From a virus: a stretch of DNA of 64,000 bases. Under the pieces are notes generated by a model that searched no databases, was not told where the DNA came from, and saw nothing but the letters and a program-made list of their open reading frames with translations. The translations under genes were made by a program, and so were the position numbers. Shown here piece by piece: positions 540 to 52,451 of this stretch. The stretch spans positions 1 through 64,000 of the IMG/VR virus record IMGVR_UViG_3300043418_000120. One strand, given 5' to 3'. The first letter of the stretch is position 1. The number at the start of each line of letters is the position of its first letter.

Positions 540-878
540 ATGGCAATAGTACAAGCACTCTACATGGACCAGGGAACAGATTTTTCCACTGGTATCACAT
601 TGTATGCTGACAACGGTATTCTCCCGCTCGATCTGACTGGGTACTCGTTCAAAGCACAAATGCGAAAGTCCTACTCTTCCTCAACAGCCTATACATTTAC
701 ATGTACAATTGGGAGTCCAACTACTGGACAGATTATTCTGACGATGGATTCGGCGGTCACAACTACCGTTAAATCTGGTCGTTATCTTTATGATATCGAG
801 ATGGTGGATTCCACTGGATATAAGTCGCGTCCAGTAGAAGGCGTTGTTATCGTATCGCCTCAGATTACTCAGATCTAA
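540..878 (+). CDS. small virion structural protein (BppU-like Ig fold)
   Basis: DQGTDF...DLTGY...AQMRKSY...GRYLYDIE...EGVVIVSPQIT motif set, common in T4-like virion clusters. Confidence 0.7.
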   Translation: MAIVQALYMDQGTDFSTGITLYADNGILPLDLTGYSFKAQMRKSYSSSTAYTFTCTIGSPTTGQIILTMDSAVTTTVKSGRYLYDIEMVDSTGYKSRPVEGVVIVSPQITQI

Positions 879-883
879 TCACT

Positions 884-929
884 AGAAACCCAACACTGTT
901 ATTATACAAGATAGCAGAATTATTGTCAA
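884..929 (-). promoter_or_regulatory. antisense sigma70 promoter with conserved 17-nt leader (copy A)
   Basis: Minus strand reads TTGACA-17nt-TATAAT-AACAGTGTTGGGTTTCT; same leader at 28514-28530 (-) and 51941-51957 (+). Confidence 0.75.
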
Positions 930-935
930 ATTTAA

Positions 936-3900
936 ATGTCAAATGCTAAGGGAACAGGAATCGGCAAGGCAAGTAACCAAGTTACAAAGGTTACGGCTAC
1001 ATCTCGTTCCGAAGCCAACGCAGTTGCTCAAGACCTAAGACGCTCGGTTCAGAAAGCAGTTGCTATGCCAGCTGCAGCTGTTCGAGCAGCCATGGCACAA
1101 AACCTTTCGGGAGCTGTTGCTGCCAAGGTTGCATATGATGTTCTAAGCCGATTCCTATCGCTTATCGAATCTGGTGTTGCCATCGACAAGGCAATGCTCA
1201 AGACTACCAAAGCTGCCATTGACACTGCTCACTCTAGCGATGGTATTCTATACAAGAAGGTCACTAAAGCCTTCAATGATATCTCTCACCTCAACGATGT
1301 TCTTGTTCGCGTAGTTAGCTACAACAGAACCTTTGCTGAGGCGACACATTCTGTTGACCAACCAGCCAAGAAACTATCGAAGACAAAGCCAGACACTGCG
1401 CATTCTTCGGATGCGCGCACAGTTGTTCTTGGTAAGCTCAAATCGGAATCCCTACAACTCTCAGAGAATTTTGCCAAGGTAGTTTCCTTTAAGAGACTAG
1501 CTGCTGATCCAGTCACACTTACTGAACTGGCTCTGAAGAAAATCACCAAAGGTAATGCTGATACAGCTGCCTTGGTTGAAAGTAAAACAAAGACAATTAG
1601 TAAACCGAAGGTTGAGATAATCAACCTTGCTGAACTGAAGAAGCTGAACTTCGGTAAGGTTGCCAATGAAATTCTGAGCACAAACGATGCTCGTCGCTTG
1701 CTGTTTACCAAGAAGATCAACGACTTCATCTCTGTTCTTGAATCCAGCGATGTTCGAATGGCAGCGGCCAACTATGGCAATAGCGGTGTCGATCTTGGTC
1801 ATATCTCTGATCAATTATCACGTCTGGTCTCTTTCGTAAGACTCTTCTCTGACGCAGCAAAAGCTCAAGAAACAACGAAACGAACGCTACAAAAGCGTCT
1901 TTCTGAGACTCCAAGAGCCACTGACAGAGTGACGCATGTGATGACGTTCAACCGTCTATTCACAGACACGTCTCACTCTACAGATGTGTTTAAACGTGTT
2001 ATTTCCTACAACCGAACAAAGAACGATGTTGCGCGATCAACAGATGCTGCTAAACGCACTGTCAATAAAGGCGCATTCGTTCGAACAGCCACTTCGGTTG
2101 ACTCATATTCGCGCAAGTTTACCAAGGCGAAAGCTGATATTGGCCGAGCAACTGATTCGTTCTCACGTCTTGTTACATTCAATCGCTCGTTCAATTCGAC
2201 TGCCACTTCAACGCACTCAATTGACGTTGTCGCTTTGGTCAAGAGCTTCAACAGAACATTTACTGAAGTTCCAAAGGCAGCTGACTCATTTGTTCGTTAT
2301 GTTTCTTACAAGCGTTTCTATACCGACACAGGCGCAGCGGCTGACAGCTTCTCGAAGGTTGTTACATACAACCGCAGCAAGCAAGACATTAGCACTGCGC
2401 TAGACGCATTCGCGAAGGTTGTTGAGTTCAACCGTACAAAGAGCGATGCGTCAACAGCCTCTGATAGTTTCAGTAAGGTATTGTTTGCGCCACGTTTGCG
2501 CCAAGATACATCAAGAGCTACTGATTTAATTACCGCAAAGGTAATCACGAAACGTCTAGAGTCATTGCTGCGAGCCAGCGATGATATGCGCATTAGCAGC
2601 TTCAACCATCCAGGCACATTCCCACCAGCGGATCGCCCAAGAGTTGCTGATCAATTCCGTAAATTTGTTTCGTTCATTCGTTCAGTTACTGATGTTGCTA
2701 AAGCGCAAGAGACAATCTCTAAGTCTCAAATCAAATCTGTTGGTGACAGCATTAGCTATGTCTGGGAAGATTACAACGAAACAAGTTATATCCTTGAGTT
2801 GCTACAGGGATATACGCCAGTTAGAACGGACAAGGTTCGTACAACTGAAACAACACCTAAGACGCTATCGAAGCGCATCCCTTACCAAGTTACATACTAT
2901 CCAGATTCTACATGGACTGACTATAACGAACTGTCGCTTGGCACTACCGTTGACCAAGAGCTTGTTCAAGAAGCATGGAATGTTCCATATACATTAGACT
3001 CTGACCTTGCTCGCCCAACAGATATCTTCACAAAGGTAGTCAACTACAGCCGACCAACTGCTGAAGTAATGACAGCGCCAGATGTTATGGGTAAACAGAT
3101 TGCTCGTACTGTTGGTGACAATCGCTCTAACACGTTCAACGACTTTGCTGATATTGCTTACTCGAACGAGTACTACTCAGGAGCAGGTGGTTATGGCGCG
3201 ACCATTACAATCACCAACAACTATCCTACTTACACAGTATCAGTAACAAACGCTGGATACAATTATACAGTTGGTCAACCATTCTCCATCCTCGTTGATG
3301 GAGGCGAGCCTTGCTCATTCACCGTGGCTACCATCAACGGTAATGGTGGTATTCTAACTGTTACTGGCGTGTCGGGTAAGCCACCTGTTGTTGCCACAAC
3401 AATCAAGAGTGGTTACTGGAACGACTTCGCTGAATTGACAATGGGTCTTGGTACTCTTGATCAATACACAGCACAATACAATGGTATCGTAATTAACTAT
3501 GTCTATCCTGGTCCATTCGCTGGTCAGAATGTTGGACCCGCTGTTCCTCTTCGCCGTAGCGTTATCGGCCAAGACTTGTTGTTTACTACAACTCCACGTT
3601 CTGATGGAGATAGTGCTAAGGGCGTCGACGCAGTTGGAAAGACAATTACTAAAGACGCAAGAATCTTTGTTCCTCAAGGCTTCTGGAATGACTTCGCGGA
3701 TTTGTCGTTCGGTAATGGTAGTGGTCTAGACCAAGAGCTGATTCAAAACTTCGCAACATCGAAACCAGAAAGTGTTTCTGTTGTTGGTGCAATGTCAGTT
3801 GCTACGCTGGGTCCAACAAAACGCAACCGCGACGAAGCGTTCGCGCAAGACGCGACGCCAAAGAAACTATCTAAGGGTACATTCGCTGAGCCTCTTGGTG

Positions 3901-6152
3901 CCAACGAAACCTTTGCTAAATTCTACGCTAAGTCTGCTGGTAAGTGGACACTGCAGGTATGGAATGACTTCGTAGATTACACCCACAACTTGCTTGAGAT
4001 GTCTCTAGACAATCAAGGCAACTACGAACTGATTCTTCTGCCTGAAACACTTGCTAAGAACGTATCTAAGCAAATGGTCTTCCCTCAATATGTGTGGAGA
4101 GACTATAACGAGTTGACATTTGGTTCTACTAATGACCAAGAACTTGTTGTCACATGGGCATCTACAGATAGCAGCGATATCTCTAGAGTGATGGACGATG
4201 CTCGTCGTAGCATCCAACCCAACAAGTCTGACACAATCAGTCTCGGCGAAGACAAGAGTAAAGAAATTACACTTGGTGCCATCGGTGATTCGCGCAACCC
4301 ATCAACGTTCCGTGACTACTTGGGTCTGTTCCCAGTTGGCTATACTGGCAGCAATGCTGTTCAAGATGAAGAACTGTTGCTGAAACTACATCCAGGCGAT
4401 CGTACGGACTTTGCTAAGATTGCTGACGCAGCGCCTAAGACATTTACAAAAGTTCCAGTAATCACGGTAAAGCCTTTCTGGTCGGACTTCAACGACTTGA
4501 CGTTTGGTACAACATACGACCAAGACCTACTACAGTTCCAAGATACTGTTCGTCCTGAAACATCAGTGGCTGCTGACTTGTTCCGTCGTGTCTTTACTGC
4601 TAAACGTACGTTCGCAGATGCGGTTATGGTTAAGGACTCGATGTTGTTGTCTGTCAATGGTGGACCCCTCTTCACATTGATTGACCGCAACGTTGATGTT
4701 GCTCGCTCAGCAGAAACGCAATCTCGTTTCTTATTGAAAGGCGTTGGTAATGTTAAGTCTTACTACAGTAATTGGTACGACTTCGCCGAGCTAGAAGCAG
4801 CAACTGAACTTGCTCAATATTACTCACGCCCAATCGACTCTACTCTTGATACAGGTAAGTTGGTCGACGTTAAGAAGCAAACCTTCTACAAACAAGCTGG
4901 TCGTGTTCAGAACATTCTGAACTACTTCGACACAGACTTGTACTACGATCGCGATCTGATCCAACAATTCGCCAACGACTATGTAACTGAAATTGGTTTG
5001 GCAACAGACAACTTTATCCGTGTTATCTCGCCGAAGAAGACTGAAGTATTAACTGCTCCTGATGTTAAGTCGTTTGAGATTACTAAGAGTACTGTTGGCG
5101 ACACATCAGTAAGCGTTTGGGCAGACTATCTTGACTTGTGGTTGGCAGATACAACCAACAAAATGCCAACGTACAAGATTGATACGTTGACGGTTCGCGA
5201 AGCCCACCCAATTACATATACAAAGAAAGCTGGTTCGAATCAATACCGTATCTTTGATGACATCTTCGGTTCGTTTATTTACACAGAACTCGAAGAGTTG
5301 GGCTCTACGCCTTACCGCAATGATATTGTGTCGGTTCGTGAGACGTTCACTCGCACATTCAATGCTGGTCGTACAAAGGCTGAGCCTTTGCAAGCTGCAG
5401 ATTCTGCGCCAAAGGCACTATCCAAGGGAACAAAGGCAGAACAGCAGTGGGCTCATGATACATCAGCTAAGACATACACCAAAGTTGGTGGCGCCAATGT
5501 GTTCAATATCTGGTCAGATTTTGCTGAGCTAGATCCACAACTTGAACTGGCTCAGTACTACCCAGACTATCGCCTTGAATATCTGAAGTCGATTGACGTT
5601 CGTGTCAACAAACTGACAAAGGCTCGTAGCGATATCGCTCTATCGGCTGATGCTGCTACGTTGAAGCCAAATAAAGGGCTATCTGAAACGCCAACAATGC
5701 TCGAAGGTATTGGTAAGTTCGCCAATATCGCTCAGGTTGGTAACTCAACACTGACAAGCTGGTACGATTCTAACGAAATTACCAGCTATGACCCAACTTT
5801 GATGACGTATGGTCAGGTTAAGACTATCCGTTTCGACAAAGTTACATACTCAGACACTGTTGGACGTCAGTTCAATAAGACTGCAGGTAAGTATAAGACA
5901 AGTATCTGGACTGACTTCTTGGAGCTAGACAGCTCTCAGGATCTAGCCCAGTACTATCCACCGTATGTAACCGAAATGCTGCGCACTGCAGACGGTTCTA
6001 CAAGACGTCTAAATAAAGGATTGAGCGAAAATCCAGTGAGCGCTGACTCGGGCACGGTAAGAGTGTTTGACAATGACTCTTATTTTATTGATTCGTCGCC
6101 CTATTATGCTGAGGATTACATGTCAGATGGCATTACAACCTCAACATTCTAA
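936..6152 (+). CDS. 1738-aa repeat-rich putative fibrous virion protein
   Basis: ~19-aa repeats (FxRxVSYNRxFxDxAxAxD-like) plus ~16 inserted WxDF/YxEL...DQELxQYY motifs; lies in the late structural cluster. Confidence 0.75.
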   Translation: MSNAKGTGIGKASNQVTKVTATSRSEANAVAQDLRRSVQKAVAMPAAAVRAAMAQNLSGAVAAKVAYDVLSRFLSLIESGVAIDKAMLKTTKAAIDTAHSSDGILYKKVTKAFNDISHLNDVLVRVVSYNRTFAEATHSVDQPAKKLSKTKPDTAHSSDARTVVLGKLKSESLQLSENFAKVVSFKRLAADPVTLTELALKKITKGNADTAALVESKTKTISKPKVEIINLAELKKLNFGKVANEILSTNDARRLLFTKKINDFISVLESSDVRMAAANYGNSGVDLGHISDQLSRLVSFVRLFSDAAKAQETTKRTLQKRLSETPRATDRVTHVMTFNRLFTDTSHSTDVFKRVISYNRTKNDVARSTDAAKRTVNKGAFVRTATSVDSYSRKFTKAKADIGRATDSFSRLVTFNRSFNSTATSTHSIDVVALVKSFNRTFTEVPKAADSFVRYVSYKRFYTDTGAAADSFSKVVTYNRSKQDISTALDAFAKVVEFNRTKSDASTASDSFSKVLFAPRLRQDTSRATDLITAKVITKRLESLLRASDDMRISSFNHPGTFPPADRPRVADQFRKFVSFIRSVTDVAKAQETISKSQIKSVGDSISYVWEDYNETSYILELLQGYTPVRTDKVRTTETTPKTLSKRIPYQVTYYPDSTWTDYNELSLGTTVDQELVQEAWNVPYTLDSDLARPTDIFTKVVNYSRPTAEVMTAPDVMGKQIARTVGDNRSNTFNDFADIAYSNEYYSGAGGYGATITITNNYPTYTVSVTNAGYNYTVGQPFSILVDGGEPCSFTVATINGNGGILTVTGVSGKPPVVATTIKSGYWNDFAELTMGLGTLDQYTAQYNGIVINYVYPGPFAGQNVGPAVPLRRSVIGQDLLFTTTPRSDGDSAKGVDAVGKTITKDARIFVPQGFWNDFADLSFGNGSGLDQELIQNFATSKPESVSVVGAMSVATLGPTKRNRDEAFAQDATPKKLSKGTFAEPLGANETFAKFYAKSAGKWTLQVWNDFVDYTHNLLEMSLDNQGNYELILLPETLAKNVSKQMVFPQYVWRDYNELTFGSTNDQELVVTWASTDSSDISRVMDDARRSIQPNKSDTISLGEDKSKEITLGAIGDSRNPSTFRDYLGLFPVGYTGSNAVQDEELLLKLHPGDRTDFAKIADAAPKTFTKVPVITVKPFWSDFNDLTFGTTYDQDLLQFQDTVRPETSVAADLFRRVFTAKRTFADAVMVKDSMLLSVNGGPLFTLIDRNVDVARSAETQSRFLLKGVGNVKSYYSNWYDFAELEAATELAQYYSRPIDSTLDTGKLVDVKKQTFYKQAGRVQNILNYFDTDLYYDRDLIQQFANDYVTEIGLATDNFIRVISPKKTEVLTAPDVKSFEITKSTVGDTSVSVWADYLDLWLADTTNKMPTYKIDTLTVREAHPITYTKKAGSNQYRIFDDIFGSFIYTELEELGSTPYRNDIVSVRETFTRTFNAGRTKAEPLQAADSAPKALSKGTKAEQQWAHDTSAKTYTKVGGANVFNIWSDFAELDPQLELAQYYPDYRLEYLKSIDVRVNKLTKARSDIALSADAATLKPNKGLSETPTMLEGIGKFANIAQVGNSTLTSWYDSNEITSYDPTLMTYGQVKTIRFDKVTYSDTVGRQFNKTAGKYKTSIWTDFLELDSSQDLAQYYPPYVTEMLRTADGSTRRLNKGLSENPVSADSGTVRVFDNDSYFIDSSPYYAEDYMSDGITTSTF

Positions 6153-28209: not shown

Positions 28210-28500
28210 ATGCAAGAATGCCCAATATGTAAAAAAGAATTTAAGAAAAGGTCAAATAAGATTTTTTGTTCTAGAAGATGCAAGAACATAAATCGAATGA
28301 AGCCATGGGTTCGACACAAAAAGGATAATTGTGAAGAGTGTGGATTCATACCCAAACATAAGTGCCAACTTGACGTTGACCACATAGATGGCGATAAGGA
28401 AAATAATAATTCCTTAAATTACAAAACACTTTGTGCAAACTGTCATAGGTTGAAGACATTTCTTTGTGGCGACTTTTACTCTAAGGAATACAGATCTTAA
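28210..28500 (+). CDS. free-standing HNH endonuclease with zinc fingers
   Basis: CPIC..FCSRRC N-terminus; CEECG...DVDHIDGDKENN...LCANCHRLKT; visibly AT-rich. Confidence 0.85.
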   Translation: MQECPICKKEFKKRSNKIFCSRRCKNINRMKPWVRHKKDNCEECGFIPKHKCQLDVDHIDGDKENNNSLNYKTLCANCHRLKTFLCGDFYSKEYRS

Positions 28501-28513
28501 CATCATTCCTATC

Positions 28514-28559
28514 AGAAACCCAACACGGTTATTATACAAGGTTCCCTCTTATTGGTCAA
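28514..28559 (-). promoter_or_regulatory. antisense sigma70 promoter with conserved 17-nt leader (copy B)
   Basis: Minus strand reads TTGACC-17nt-TATAAT-AACCGTGTTGGGTTTCT. Confidence 0.75.
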
Positions 28560-28584
28560 ATAAATAGTGGAACAAGGAGATCCT

Positions 28585-29145
28585 ATGACAACACCAACAG
28601 TACCTGCTGAGTGGAAAACGAAAATCCCAGATAACATCAATCCATTGTCACCAAGTGGCTTCAAGTTTAAGATTGCGAAGCTGCCACAATTGGAATTTTT
28701 CTGCCAGACAGTCAACCTACCTGCCATCACATTGGGCGAACCAATGTTCGGAACACCGTTCACGCCTATCCCAATTCCAGGTGAAACGCTTACGTTCGGA
28801 GACCTGACAGTCCAATTCCTAGTCGACGAAGACATGCATAACTTTCGAGCACTTCAGGGCTGGCTCTATGGTTTGGGCTTCCCAACAGATTACCAACAGT
28901 ATGTGAACTTCCAAAAGCTAGACACCGTTGTTGGTGGCACAGCTGGTGGTACGGACTTGACCCGTAACTACTCAGACGCTTCGCTCTTTATTTTGACAAA
29001 TAATAACAGTGAGAATATAATTGTAAACTTCAAGAACATGTTCCCAACATCTCTTGAAAGCCTTACATTTTCGGGCGTCGAATCTGACGTCAACTACCTG
29101 ATCGGTAGTGCTACCTTTAAATTTACGTATTACGAATTCACATAA
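28585..29145 (+). CDS. gp3: tail tube terminator / tail completion protein
   Basis: N.LSPSGFKF.I.KLP.LEFFCQ..NLP, FLVDEDM.N, F.N.FPTSL; GGAG RBS. Confidence 0.9.
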   Translation: MTTPTVPAEWKTKIPDNINPLSPSGFKFKIAKLPQLEFFCQTVNLPAITLGEPMFGTPFTPIPIPGETLTFGDLTVQFLVDEDMHNFRALQGWLYGLGFPTDYQQYVNFQKLDTVVGGTAGGTDLTRNYSDASLFILTNNNSENIIVNFKNMFPTSLESLTFSGVESDVNYLIGSATFKFTYYEFT

Positions 29146-31085: not shown

Positions 31086-31528
31086 GAGATTATAGAGTTA
31101 TCCGCATGAAGACAGGGGAGTCCTATTTGTGTATTGTGGACGAAGAAACCCACGATGAAATCACATTTTTATTCCCTCTTGTTGTCAATACCCACACTAT
31201 TCCAGTAGCTGACAACGTTCTCCGCGAAATCCACTCTACAACTGTTATGTGTCCTTTTACTGAAGAACGCCACTTTATGATGAAGCAGAGTGAGATATCC
31301 TTCACAAAGCCAATGGGCGAGAAGGCTATCACCTACTACATCGAAATGCTGAACACTCATGAGGAGATTGATACGCTCAAAGCCTACTCTCTTCATGACA
31401 TCATTGAAGATATCGAAATCGATGACGAGCTAGATGATAAGACTAGAGCTTTACTCAACAGCATGGAAGAAATTGAGAATGAGACTGACGATCCTACTGC
31501 CCTGACTGGCAATAAGACACTACATTGA
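31082..31528 (+). CDS. conserved hypothetical protein (Sm-like fold) between uvsW and g55
   Basis: VIRMKTGE.YLC start, acidic tail ending KTLH; usual T4-like synteny. Confidence 0.7.
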   Translation: MRDYRVIRMKTGESYLCIVDEETHDEITFLFPLVVNTHTIPVADNVLREIHSTTVMCPFTEERHFMMKQSEISFTKPMGEKAITYYIEMLNTHEEIDTLKAYSLHDIIEDIEIDDELDDKTRALLNSMEEIENETDDPTALTGNKTLH

Positions 31529-31535
31529 AATATAT

Positions 31536-31564
31536 TTGACAACTACTCAGTTGTCAGGTATAAT
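31536..31564 (+). promoter_or_regulatory. sigma70 promoter of g55
   Basis: TTGACA-17nt-TATAAT. Confidence 0.8.
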
Positions 31565-51590: not shown

Positions 51591-51911
51591 CACGCCGACC
51601 TGAGGCAGCTGCGCTGCTTTGTAGCGGAGTCTAATAAATAGCGTTCGCTCTCGCTACAGGCGTGGTTGGGTGTGTTCGTCTTAACCTGTTCGGTATCTTG
51701 CACGCACAAATACCCCTTCGTAAATGACCCATCCTGCAGCATAAATGTCAAGTAAAACCTACGTTCGGAAGGGTTTTTCATTGACTTTTTCGTCAAAAAA
51801 GACTATAATCACAGAGTGATTATGTGGTAGCCCCTTACCCCTTTGGACAGCATAAGAGTGGTTACATATGGAGGTATTGGTGGAAGCCTTGGTGGATGTT
51901 CGGAGATAGTC

Positions 51912-51957
51912 TTGACATATATTCCCATATGCTGTATAATAACAGTGTTGGGTTTCT
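51912..51957 (+). promoter_or_regulatory. sigma70 promoter with conserved 17-nt leader (copy C)
   Basis: TTGACA-17nt-TATAAT-AACAGTGTTGGGTTTCT. Confidence 0.8.
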
Positions 51958-52041: not shown

Positions 52042-52215
52042 ATGAAAGGTTTGGCAATGGAACTGAGCATGCTAGAGGTTATGATGTATGTAGGCAACTA
52101 CATGGATATGAATGACATGACAAGCATAAGACACATTACTGCTAGGGATCTAGAACGAATGGCAGAAGACTTGGAAATTTCCGTGGGAGCACTAGTGGAT
52201 ATACTTGACGCTTGA
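52042..52215 (+). CDS. 57-aa putative HTH microprotein (not in track)
   Basis: GGAGA RBS; TARDLERMAEDLEISVGALVDIL resembles a helix-turn-helix. Confidence 0.45.
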   Translation: MKGLAMELSMLEVMMYVGNYMDMNDMTSIRHITARDLERMAEDLEISVGALVDILDA

Positions 52216-52451
52216 CATTTATGGGAGAATCAGGTATAATTGCTTGACATATAAGGGGGTAGGGTCACTGGAGACGAAGTTAATTTCGGGTCCCCTTGGA
52301 GTTGGTCGGGTCCCCTTCGGCTTGACCCGCCCCAATTATTTCTTTAATCCCTAAAAAGATTCCCCTGATCCAAAGCTGAAGATTTCCGATGAAAGTCGCT
52401 GAAAAAATCGCTGCAAAAATTTTTGAGCTGCAAAGCTGTTTGGAAGATATT

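Follow-up and report, generated by a model that had tools for sequence, protein, structure and literature searches.

A sigma70-type promoter on the minus strand, followed directly by a conserved box, lies at 884–929 between the stop codon of gene 540–878 (5 nt away) and the ATG of gene 936–6152 (6 nt away), and points into a tail-fibre/structural module. The window, to which these positions refer, covers the initial 64 kb of a virus record of 173,880 bp (G+C content 44%), which comes from a metagenome and represents an uncultivated phage. The genome is that of a T4-like myovirus, encoding portal, sheath, major capsid, UvsW-like helicase and SbcC-like proteins. Its capsid protein is ∼63% identical to the capsid proteins of Methylophilales phage Melnitz and of cyanomyoviruses, and a DNA similarity search found no nucleotide-level relative of the window among cultured phages. 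The structural genes annotated here fall within the stretch that extends from ∼141 kb over the record ends to 29 kb, and the cumulative GC skew of the genome has its minimum near 16–20 kb and its maximum near 142 kb. Below, G000 denotes this genome, G001 (complete) and G002–G005 are relatives, and L-numbers are loci of relatives.

The promoter and box at 884–929 belong to a motif, TTGAC(A/C)-17-TATAAT-AAC-N-GTGTTGGGTTT, of which five copies (A–E), sharing a box of 17–20 bp, are found in the whole genome, three of them in the window. The copies and the neighbouring features referred to in the text are as follows, in window positions unless the genome is named:

Copy A: 884–929, minus strand; −35 (TTGACA) 929–924, −10 906–901, box 900–884 = AACAGTGTTGGGTTTCT
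First gene under A: 540–878, plus strand; 112 aa, related to tail-fibre assembly proteins (phrog_1084 / phrog_3304)
Copy B: 28514–28559, minus strand; −35 (TTGACC) 28559–28554, −10 28536–28531, box 28530–28514 = AACCGTGTTGGGTTTCT
First gene under B: 28210–28500, plus strand; 96-aa HNH endonuclease-like protein, own late-type promoter TATAAATA
Late-type promoter motif AATAAATA: 28559–28566, plus strand; for the tail-tube-like gene (ATG 28585), overlapping the −35 of B by one base
Copy C: 51912–51957, plus strand; −35 51912–51917, −10 51935–51940, box 51941–51957 = AACAGTGTTGGGTTTCT
Copy C including the upstream motif: 51897–51957, plus strand; TGTTCGGA-N7-TTGACA-17-TATAAT-AACAGTGTTGGGTTTCT, in sense orientation
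TGTTCGGA octamer: 51897–51904 (C) and genome 126794–126801 (E, outside the window)
57-codon ORF behind C: 52042–52215, plus strand; Shine-Dalgarno GGAG, small acidic protein that looks helix-turn-helix-like
Copy D: genome 98,634–98,679, minus strand; outside the window
Copy E: genome 126,809–126,854, plus strand; outside the window, box ending in GA and not CT

A promoter family with a box in fixed register

An earlier note on this DNA had described three near-consensus sigma70 promoters, at 884–929 (−), 28514–28559 (−) and 51912–51957 (+), each followed by the same 17 nt. Positions, strands and the shared sequence are confirmed for A, B and C; the count of three holds for the window, but the genome, with D and E added, has five. 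That note had also stated that the promoter spacers are largely different, in agreement with our comparison of the five copies, in which 5–10 of 17 spacer positions are identical as against 14–17 of 17 in the box. The search for further copies that it had proposed returned, besides the two in this genome, ∼30 promoter-linked copies in related phages. No copy of the motif is expected by chance in the genome, and the 23-nt pattern TATAATAACNGTGTTGGGTTTCT, from TATAAT to the end of the box, gives three matches in the window, even with three mismatches allowed, and none in 100 shuffles. Copies A, C and D of G000 have 23–26 identical bases in common.

Strong sigma70-type promoters, defined as having at most one mismatch to TTGACA-16/18-TATAAT, number 44 in the genome. 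The five boxed promoters carry (T/C)TG before the −10 and the box after it; some 36 other strong promoters are without the box and have the common appearance gcTTGACAtttat...aGGTATAATtg. The TG before TATAAT lies at −14/−13 and therefore does not form a canonical extended −10. Such an element, which would have suggested resistance to an AsiA-like factor, was rejected with the TG one base off, and AsiA was not found encoded in the genome. The promoters match the sigma70 consensus and not the MotA-type middle promoter. In this genome the box is present on all three strong minus-strand promoters versus 2 of 41 on the plus strand (Fisher p = 7.6e-4), and the strong sigma70 promoters of the structural block, from ∼141 kb to 29 kb, are A, B and one 1-mismatch match at 169,618.

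Generic promoters of the gcTTGACAtttat...aGGTATAATtg type stand before small genes at window 29000–64000 (for example 35880, 39559, 55543, 58116, 59176) and on to ∼140 kb, and several of those inspected are preceded by a short palindrome, which fits the promoter-early stem-loop (PeSL) cassettes of T4-like phages (PMC2839356, PMC4122927). Past the late block, the first sigma70 promoter met on the plus strand is a perfect TTGACA-17-TATAAT at 28993–29021, within the 3′ part of the tail-tube-like gene; it lies ∼500 bp from B in divergent orientation and leads into the UvsW-like gene. At 31500–31564, behind the gene that follows UvsW, a palindromic promoter region, TTGACAACTACTCAGTTGTCA, reads as a −35 on either strand, and the same site carries an antisense box promoter in L012 and L168. 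Three tandem promoters before the tRNA region at genome 127536–127760 (locus L005) have a common start sequence, GTTCTGATGT, which resembles the end of the CT-class box with an extension (GTTTCTGAT); sequence conservation at start sites may be more widespread in this genome.

The exact 20 specified bases of the motif are found in 13 IMG/VR and 17 metagenome contigs, with fewer than one match expected by chance in IMG/VR by our own estimate. The exact motif has no match in 185,579 prokaryote genomes, which therefore offer no host promoter or prophage as a clue; cultured phages yielded chance matches only, and a literature search for the sequence returned only unrelated eukaryotic matches. Searches of IMG/VR with 14-base sub-patterns gave mostly chance matches in coding DNA and added few variant copies. 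The ∼30 promoter-linked copies, variants included, have the consensus TATAAT followed by AAC N GTGTT GGGTTT (G/C)(A/T), often then T(G), with an invariant offset of the box to the −10; 14 of the 17 positions are at 86–95% and position 4 alone is free.

Conservation is also seen site by site. At the A site, four phages (G000–G003) retain the −35, the −10 and 16–17 of 17 box positions but have drifted spacers; between G000 and G001 the proteins encoded on either side show identities of 72% and 41%, the former value belonging to the homologue of 540–878, which occupies the same position. At the D site the box is kept in five phages and the spacer has again drifted. The three copies of G001 (A-, D- and E-type) differ mutually, yet keep C-A-GTGT-N-(G/T)GG-(T/G)TT-GA, so that conservation is not merely homogenisation within one genome. 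The module itself comes and goes. At the D site of G002, G005 and G004 the stop codon runs straight into the terminator, G001 is without copy B and without its HNH gene, the copy at the UvsW site of other relatives is absent from G000 and G001, and an HD-hydrolase gene, 92% identical between G004 and G000, is headed by a box promoter in the former and by a generic one in the latter. Judged from such sequence comparisons, the module is portable. The promoter-plus-box element is real, conserved and previously undescribed.

The box around the expected transcription start

Since the conserved part adjoins the −10, its first ∼6 bases (AAC-N-GT) precede the expected start and are not 'leader'. With a start at the G seven bases downstream of the −10, the box would span −6 to ∼+11 and the RNA would begin GUUGGGUUU. 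The earlier note had placed the conservation in the transcript start; the start region is indeed conserved, but in the ∼30-copy matrix positions −6 to −1 (AAC-N-GT), which would not be transcribed from this start, are as conserved as +1 to +9.

Further upstream, TGTTCGGA stands exactly 7 bp before the −35 in C, in E, in the E-type copy of G001, in L014 and in L018, where the N7 and the spacer have drifted. The rest of the genome shows no enrichment of this octamer, whose sequence is similar to the box core (G)TGTTGGG and which may be a second site for the same factor as the box. Partial forms (CTTTCGGA and similar) are seen at D-type sites. The possibility that TTCGGA is the leftover of a tetraloop hairpin was also considered; it holds at the D site, where TTCGGA belongs to a terminator flank that is present also without the module, and fails at C and E, where no hairpin can form at the TTCGGA site. 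Conservation of the untranscribed −6 to −1, together with TGTTCGGA at a fixed distance, favours recognition at the level of DNA. We read the box as a putative DNA-level control site, acting through RNA polymerase or a phage or host factor, rather than as a structured RNA leader.

No Rfam family matches at or beside the elements. There is no shared RNA fold, the first 125 nt of A–D (88 nt for E) folding differently; fold z-scores lie between +0.9 and −1.5 for four copies and are low only for E (−2.95), through pairing with the next promoter. A leaderless mini-ORF (GTG TTG GGT TTC stop) was rejected, being lost in the GA-class copies, with third codon positions conserved too by eye. RfaH/ops-like recruitment was likewise rejected, as no NusG paralogue was found encoded in the genome. 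Inspection by eye, against the rrnB leader, revealed no conserved boxA-like sequence 3′ of the box, whether in the copies themselves or in their orthologues; E. coli rrnB boxC, ctgtgtggg, resembles C-N-GTGT-T-GGG of the box, which is one base longer, in a match too short to weigh.

Genes opposite and downstream of the copies

Antisense copies always lie 5–20 nt past the stop codon of the opposing gene (A 5, B 13 and D 8 nt). Copy A is directed at 540–878, and on its other side the giant structural gene 936–6152 encodes 1738 aa. Copy B faces first the HNH gene and then the major capsid gene. The HNH gene lies between the terminator of the capsid gene and the tail-tube-like gene, where G001 has an unrelated small ORF; it looks like a free-standing homing endonuclease insertion, with which copy B may have arrived. 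In T4, homing-endonuclease genes have no early promoters of their own (PMC2988022), which fits B facing the HNH gene. Copy D is placed behind a lysis cassette made up of a weakly holin-like gene, for a coiled-coil protein of 106 aa, and an Rz-like spanin; on one side of D is the stop codon of this 106-aa gene and on the other a plus-strand terminator preceding the primase gene. In relatives, the antisense module is found directly behind UvsW (L009) or behind a small gene after UvsW (L012, L168). The earlier note's statement that A and B fire against structural or late genes is thus borne out, for the tail-fibre module and for the HNH and capsid genes, respectively.

Where a target has a readable gene-proximal promoter, it is of the late type. 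The late-promoter motif of the genome is [ACT]TAAATA, with a plus:minus bias of 9:0 for TATAAATA and 24:4 for CTAAATA, and it is present ahead of the HNH and tail-tube-like genes as well as of the 106-aa gene before D. The motif was not found directly upstream of 540–878, the first target of A, nor within 80 nt upstream of the 1738-aa gene, which probably needs read-through across A.

The transcripts of the antisense copies do not appear to encode protein. After A or B there is no minus-strand ORF of at least 60 aa, AUG is absent from the initial 125 nt transcribed from A, and downstream of B there is just a 29-codon ORF with a cramped AGGA (by eye), in keeping with the earlier claim that neither copy has a credible downstream gene. 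That note had also envisaged that the conserved sequence might simply be the 5′ UTR of conserved small antisense ORFs; no conserved minus-strand ORF was found after A or D. No minus-strand intrinsic terminator was found downstream of A, B or D, and for B none before the capsid gene, so that an untranslated RNA might be ended early by Rho.

About half of all copies are ordinary sense promoters, and the box is therefore not an antisense-specific device. Copy C lies ∼100 nt upstream of the 57-codon ORF 52042–52215. Its product is probably a distant relative, on the evidence of an alignment (21% identity to the first sequence of the family), of the 50–66-aa proteins encoded after the box promoter in L014, L262 and L054, although BLAST gave no link to that family. 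The family is very acidic with a helix-turn-helix-like middle (window 52042–52215, L014:1379–1579(−), L262:1252–1446(+), L054:1881–2033(−)), has no Pfam or PHROG match and is encoded right behind the box promoter in several phages; some members end EWHDFDPDC. In relatives, the start codon of the small acidic proteins follows the box by 4–31 nt, most with a recognisable Shine-Dalgarno sequence. Autoregulation by the small protein behind C-type copies was weakened as an idea: the proteins are very acidic and have a generic promoter in other relatives (L288–L294), so they do not make convincing autoregulators. Between copy E and the mazG-like gene downstream lie a hairpin and a generic promoter, an arrangement shared with G001, and in relatives the box also precedes the HD-domain hydrolase gene. 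In a metagenome relative, L263:5200–5401, a box-variant promoter whose box ends in TTTTT lies ∼105 nt before a tRNA-Asp gene. After the third promoter of the C locus, a G-rich stretch at 52212–52390 bears repeats (GGGGGTAGGG, then TCGGGTCCCCTT twice), has no ORF of at least 60 aa and no Rfam match, and may be a small RNA.

Proposed early transcription against late genes

Our preferred reading, to which we assign a probability of about 0.5, is that the copies constitute a distinct, portable class of host-sigma70, early-type promoters, carried by uncultivated T4-like phages of one clade, whose antisense members would silence late genes early, with the box as their shared control. The class is defined by TTGACA-17-TATAAT and the box AAC-N-GTGTTGGGTTT-(GA/CT) in invariant register, and some copies have TGTTCGGA 7 bp before the −35. 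In sense orientation, the module stands before small early genes, mazG or a tRNA; in antisense orientation, it always follows a late-gene stop codon at a distance of a few bases. There, host RNA polymerase would at early times transcribe backwards through the tail-fibre module (A), the HNH and capsid genes (B) and the lysis cassette (D), and convergent early transcription together with cis-antisense RNA would keep these late genes silent until transcription passes from sigma70 to late. The box, contacted at the start point by RNA polymerase or another factor, would give the whole promoter class a common on/off behaviour. Silencing by a comparable logic has been proposed for the antisense RNAs of phage PAK_P3 and is established for lambda OOP. 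Early antisense RNA against premature late expression was one of two options raised in the earlier note, and the anatomy, which it fits well, suggests it. We infer the early timing, the existence and effect of the antisense RNAs and a binder of the box from the motif and its copies, their register, orientation and neighbours, and their conservation. That sigma70-type promoters would be early is carried over by analogy from T4-like phages.

The same module could also be a neutral mobile cassette of the PeSL type that spreads through recombination, its antisense insertions into short gaps between genes being tolerated by-products and the box hitch-hiking or homogenised by gene conversion. Its presence or absence at orthologous sites, the box promoter of the HD-hydrolase gene in G004 versus the generic one in G000, the 23–26 identical bases in A, C and D of G000 and the documented PeSL cassettes of T4-like phages (PMC2839356, PMC4122927) are all compatible with this. 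We nevertheless consider it unlikely, since G001 keeps the box at 14–17 of 17 positions though its three copies differ, with no homogenisation there, since spacers drift and the box does not, and since the antisense bias (p = 7.6e-4) is accompanied by repeated placement behind late stop codons in several independent contexts. A different role for the box would be that of an RNA 5′ tag, the first 10–12 nt (GUUGGGUUU...) being recognised on the transcript for stabilisation, processing or Rho resistance. Untranslated antisense RNAs and tRNA precursors would need such a tag most, and the box is enriched on non-coding units (A, B, D, the tRNA-Asp unit of L263 and the long leaders of C and E); its fixed register to the −10 also sets the RNA 5′ end, and its core C-N-GTGT-N-GGG is loosely like the GU-rich boxC of the E. 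coli rrnB leader, ctgtgtggg. However, the boxC match is one base off and only 8–9 nt long, no boxA-like partner (by eye), Rfam family or NusG paralogue accompanies it, the copies have no common secondary structure and unremarkable z-scores in four cases, and conservation extends to the untranscribed −6 to −1 and the upstream TGTTCGGA, which together make an RNA tag distinctly unlikely.

The other option of the earlier note, polarised R-loop priming sites at which, as in T4 oriF/oriG, a transcript left paired with its template would serve as primer for the leading strand, is very unlikely on the present evidence. There is no consistent A+T-rich unwinding element downstream: AT content over 40, 60 and 100 nt falls at genome percentiles of 0.30–0.98, with A and D unremarkable and B, E and, less clearly, C moderately AT-rich. 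The orientation order − − + − + bears no relation to cumulative GC skew, against which that note had proposed to plot it; many copies lie directly before translated genes with a Shine-Dalgarno sequence, or before tRNA; and some close relatives lack the module at orthologous sites. In favour of priming sites are an RNA that would start G/U-only and contain GGG, a copy adjoining uvsW in relatives and the fact that T4 origins are promoters without a common sequence (PMC3016281); this last also cuts the other way, a conserved specific sequence being no feature of T4 origins. A roadblock or insulator, in which held RNA polymerase or convergent transcription would stop plus-strand read-through and the antisense RNA would have no role, would account for copies exactly at gene boundaries, for D between a gene end and a plus-strand terminator and for B overlapping a late promoter by one base. 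It would, however, harm the 1738-aa gene after A, which probably depends on read-through across A, and the sense copies do not fit it, so that we regard it as highly improbable.

The preferred reading of an early-type promoter class that silences late genes can be taken one step further, in a form that we hold to be possible but doubtful. The box and TGTTCGGA (at ∼−46) would then be operators of a dedicated regulator that switches a small promoter set across the genome jointly on or off, and with it an antisense programme aimed at lysis, capsid, tail-fibre and, in relatives, UvsW genes, and this circuit would replace the early/late strand segregation of T4 where genes face one way. The promoter class, with its preference for antisense placement, would offer a testable handle on how T4-like phages without AsiA/MotA, and with genes nearly all in one direction, silence late genes at early times and schedule their expression. 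As the promoters are near the E. coli consensus, start point, promoter escape and the effect of the box could be tested in vitro without the phage's own host. If the box is an operator or an RNA polymerase-contact element, it would be a new cis-element in phage transcription control; if it is neutral, the case documents antisense spread of promoter cassettes.

Several known systems resemble the elements in part. In the T4 origins oriF and oriG, a pre-late promoter is joined by an A+T-rich unwinding element, and no particular sequence is required (PMC3016281). They are similar in that the transcript of a pre-late promoter need not encode anything, and in some relatives a copy lies near uvsW; they differ in that the elements described here have a specific sequence and no consistent AT-rich region. 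PeSLs are short portable early-promoter modules whose presence differs between close relatives (PMC2839356, PMC4122927), as it does here at the D site, for B in G001 and in the promoter swap of the HD-hydrolase gene. The generic promoter class of this genome fits the PeSL arrangement of an early promoter with an upstream stem-loop terminator and co-oriented small genes. In the box class, by contrast, only D has an adjacent hairpin, A and B are without a stem-loop, the conserved −6 to +11 box is an additional feature, and three of five copies run against the neighbouring genes; a literature search gave no account of PeSLs employed in antisense.

In placement there is a resemblance to the OOP RNA of phage lambda, for which the promoter pO, just past the cII stop codon, fires back, the cis-antisense RNA lowering expression of that gene. 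OOP is a discrete 77-nt RNA with its own terminator. The promoters studied here have the same position behind a stop codon, but no terminator was found and there is no sequence similarity. As in RNAs of the OOP or anti-late type, A, B and D are promoters opposite a coding gene and without a gene of their own, and an early-type promoter faces a late-type target, by sequence only, at the HNH gene and the 106-aa gene before D; no terminator gives A, B or D a discrete transcript end. The 'anti-late' RNA of T4 is a consequence of the opposite strands occupied by its early and late genes, whereas the present genome would require dedicated promoters. Early antisense RNAs over structural genes have also been described in Pseudomonas phage PAK_P3 and proposed to prevent leaky late expression, in a study that mentions lambda OOP (PMC4933390). 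The elements of this genome are like those of PAK_P3 and T4 in that antisense units, expected to be early, are aimed at structural or late genes. They are unlike either in that the antisense promoters, known here from sequence alone, belong to one sequence family with a start-site box, lie precisely behind stop codons and come from a family that is used in sense as well.
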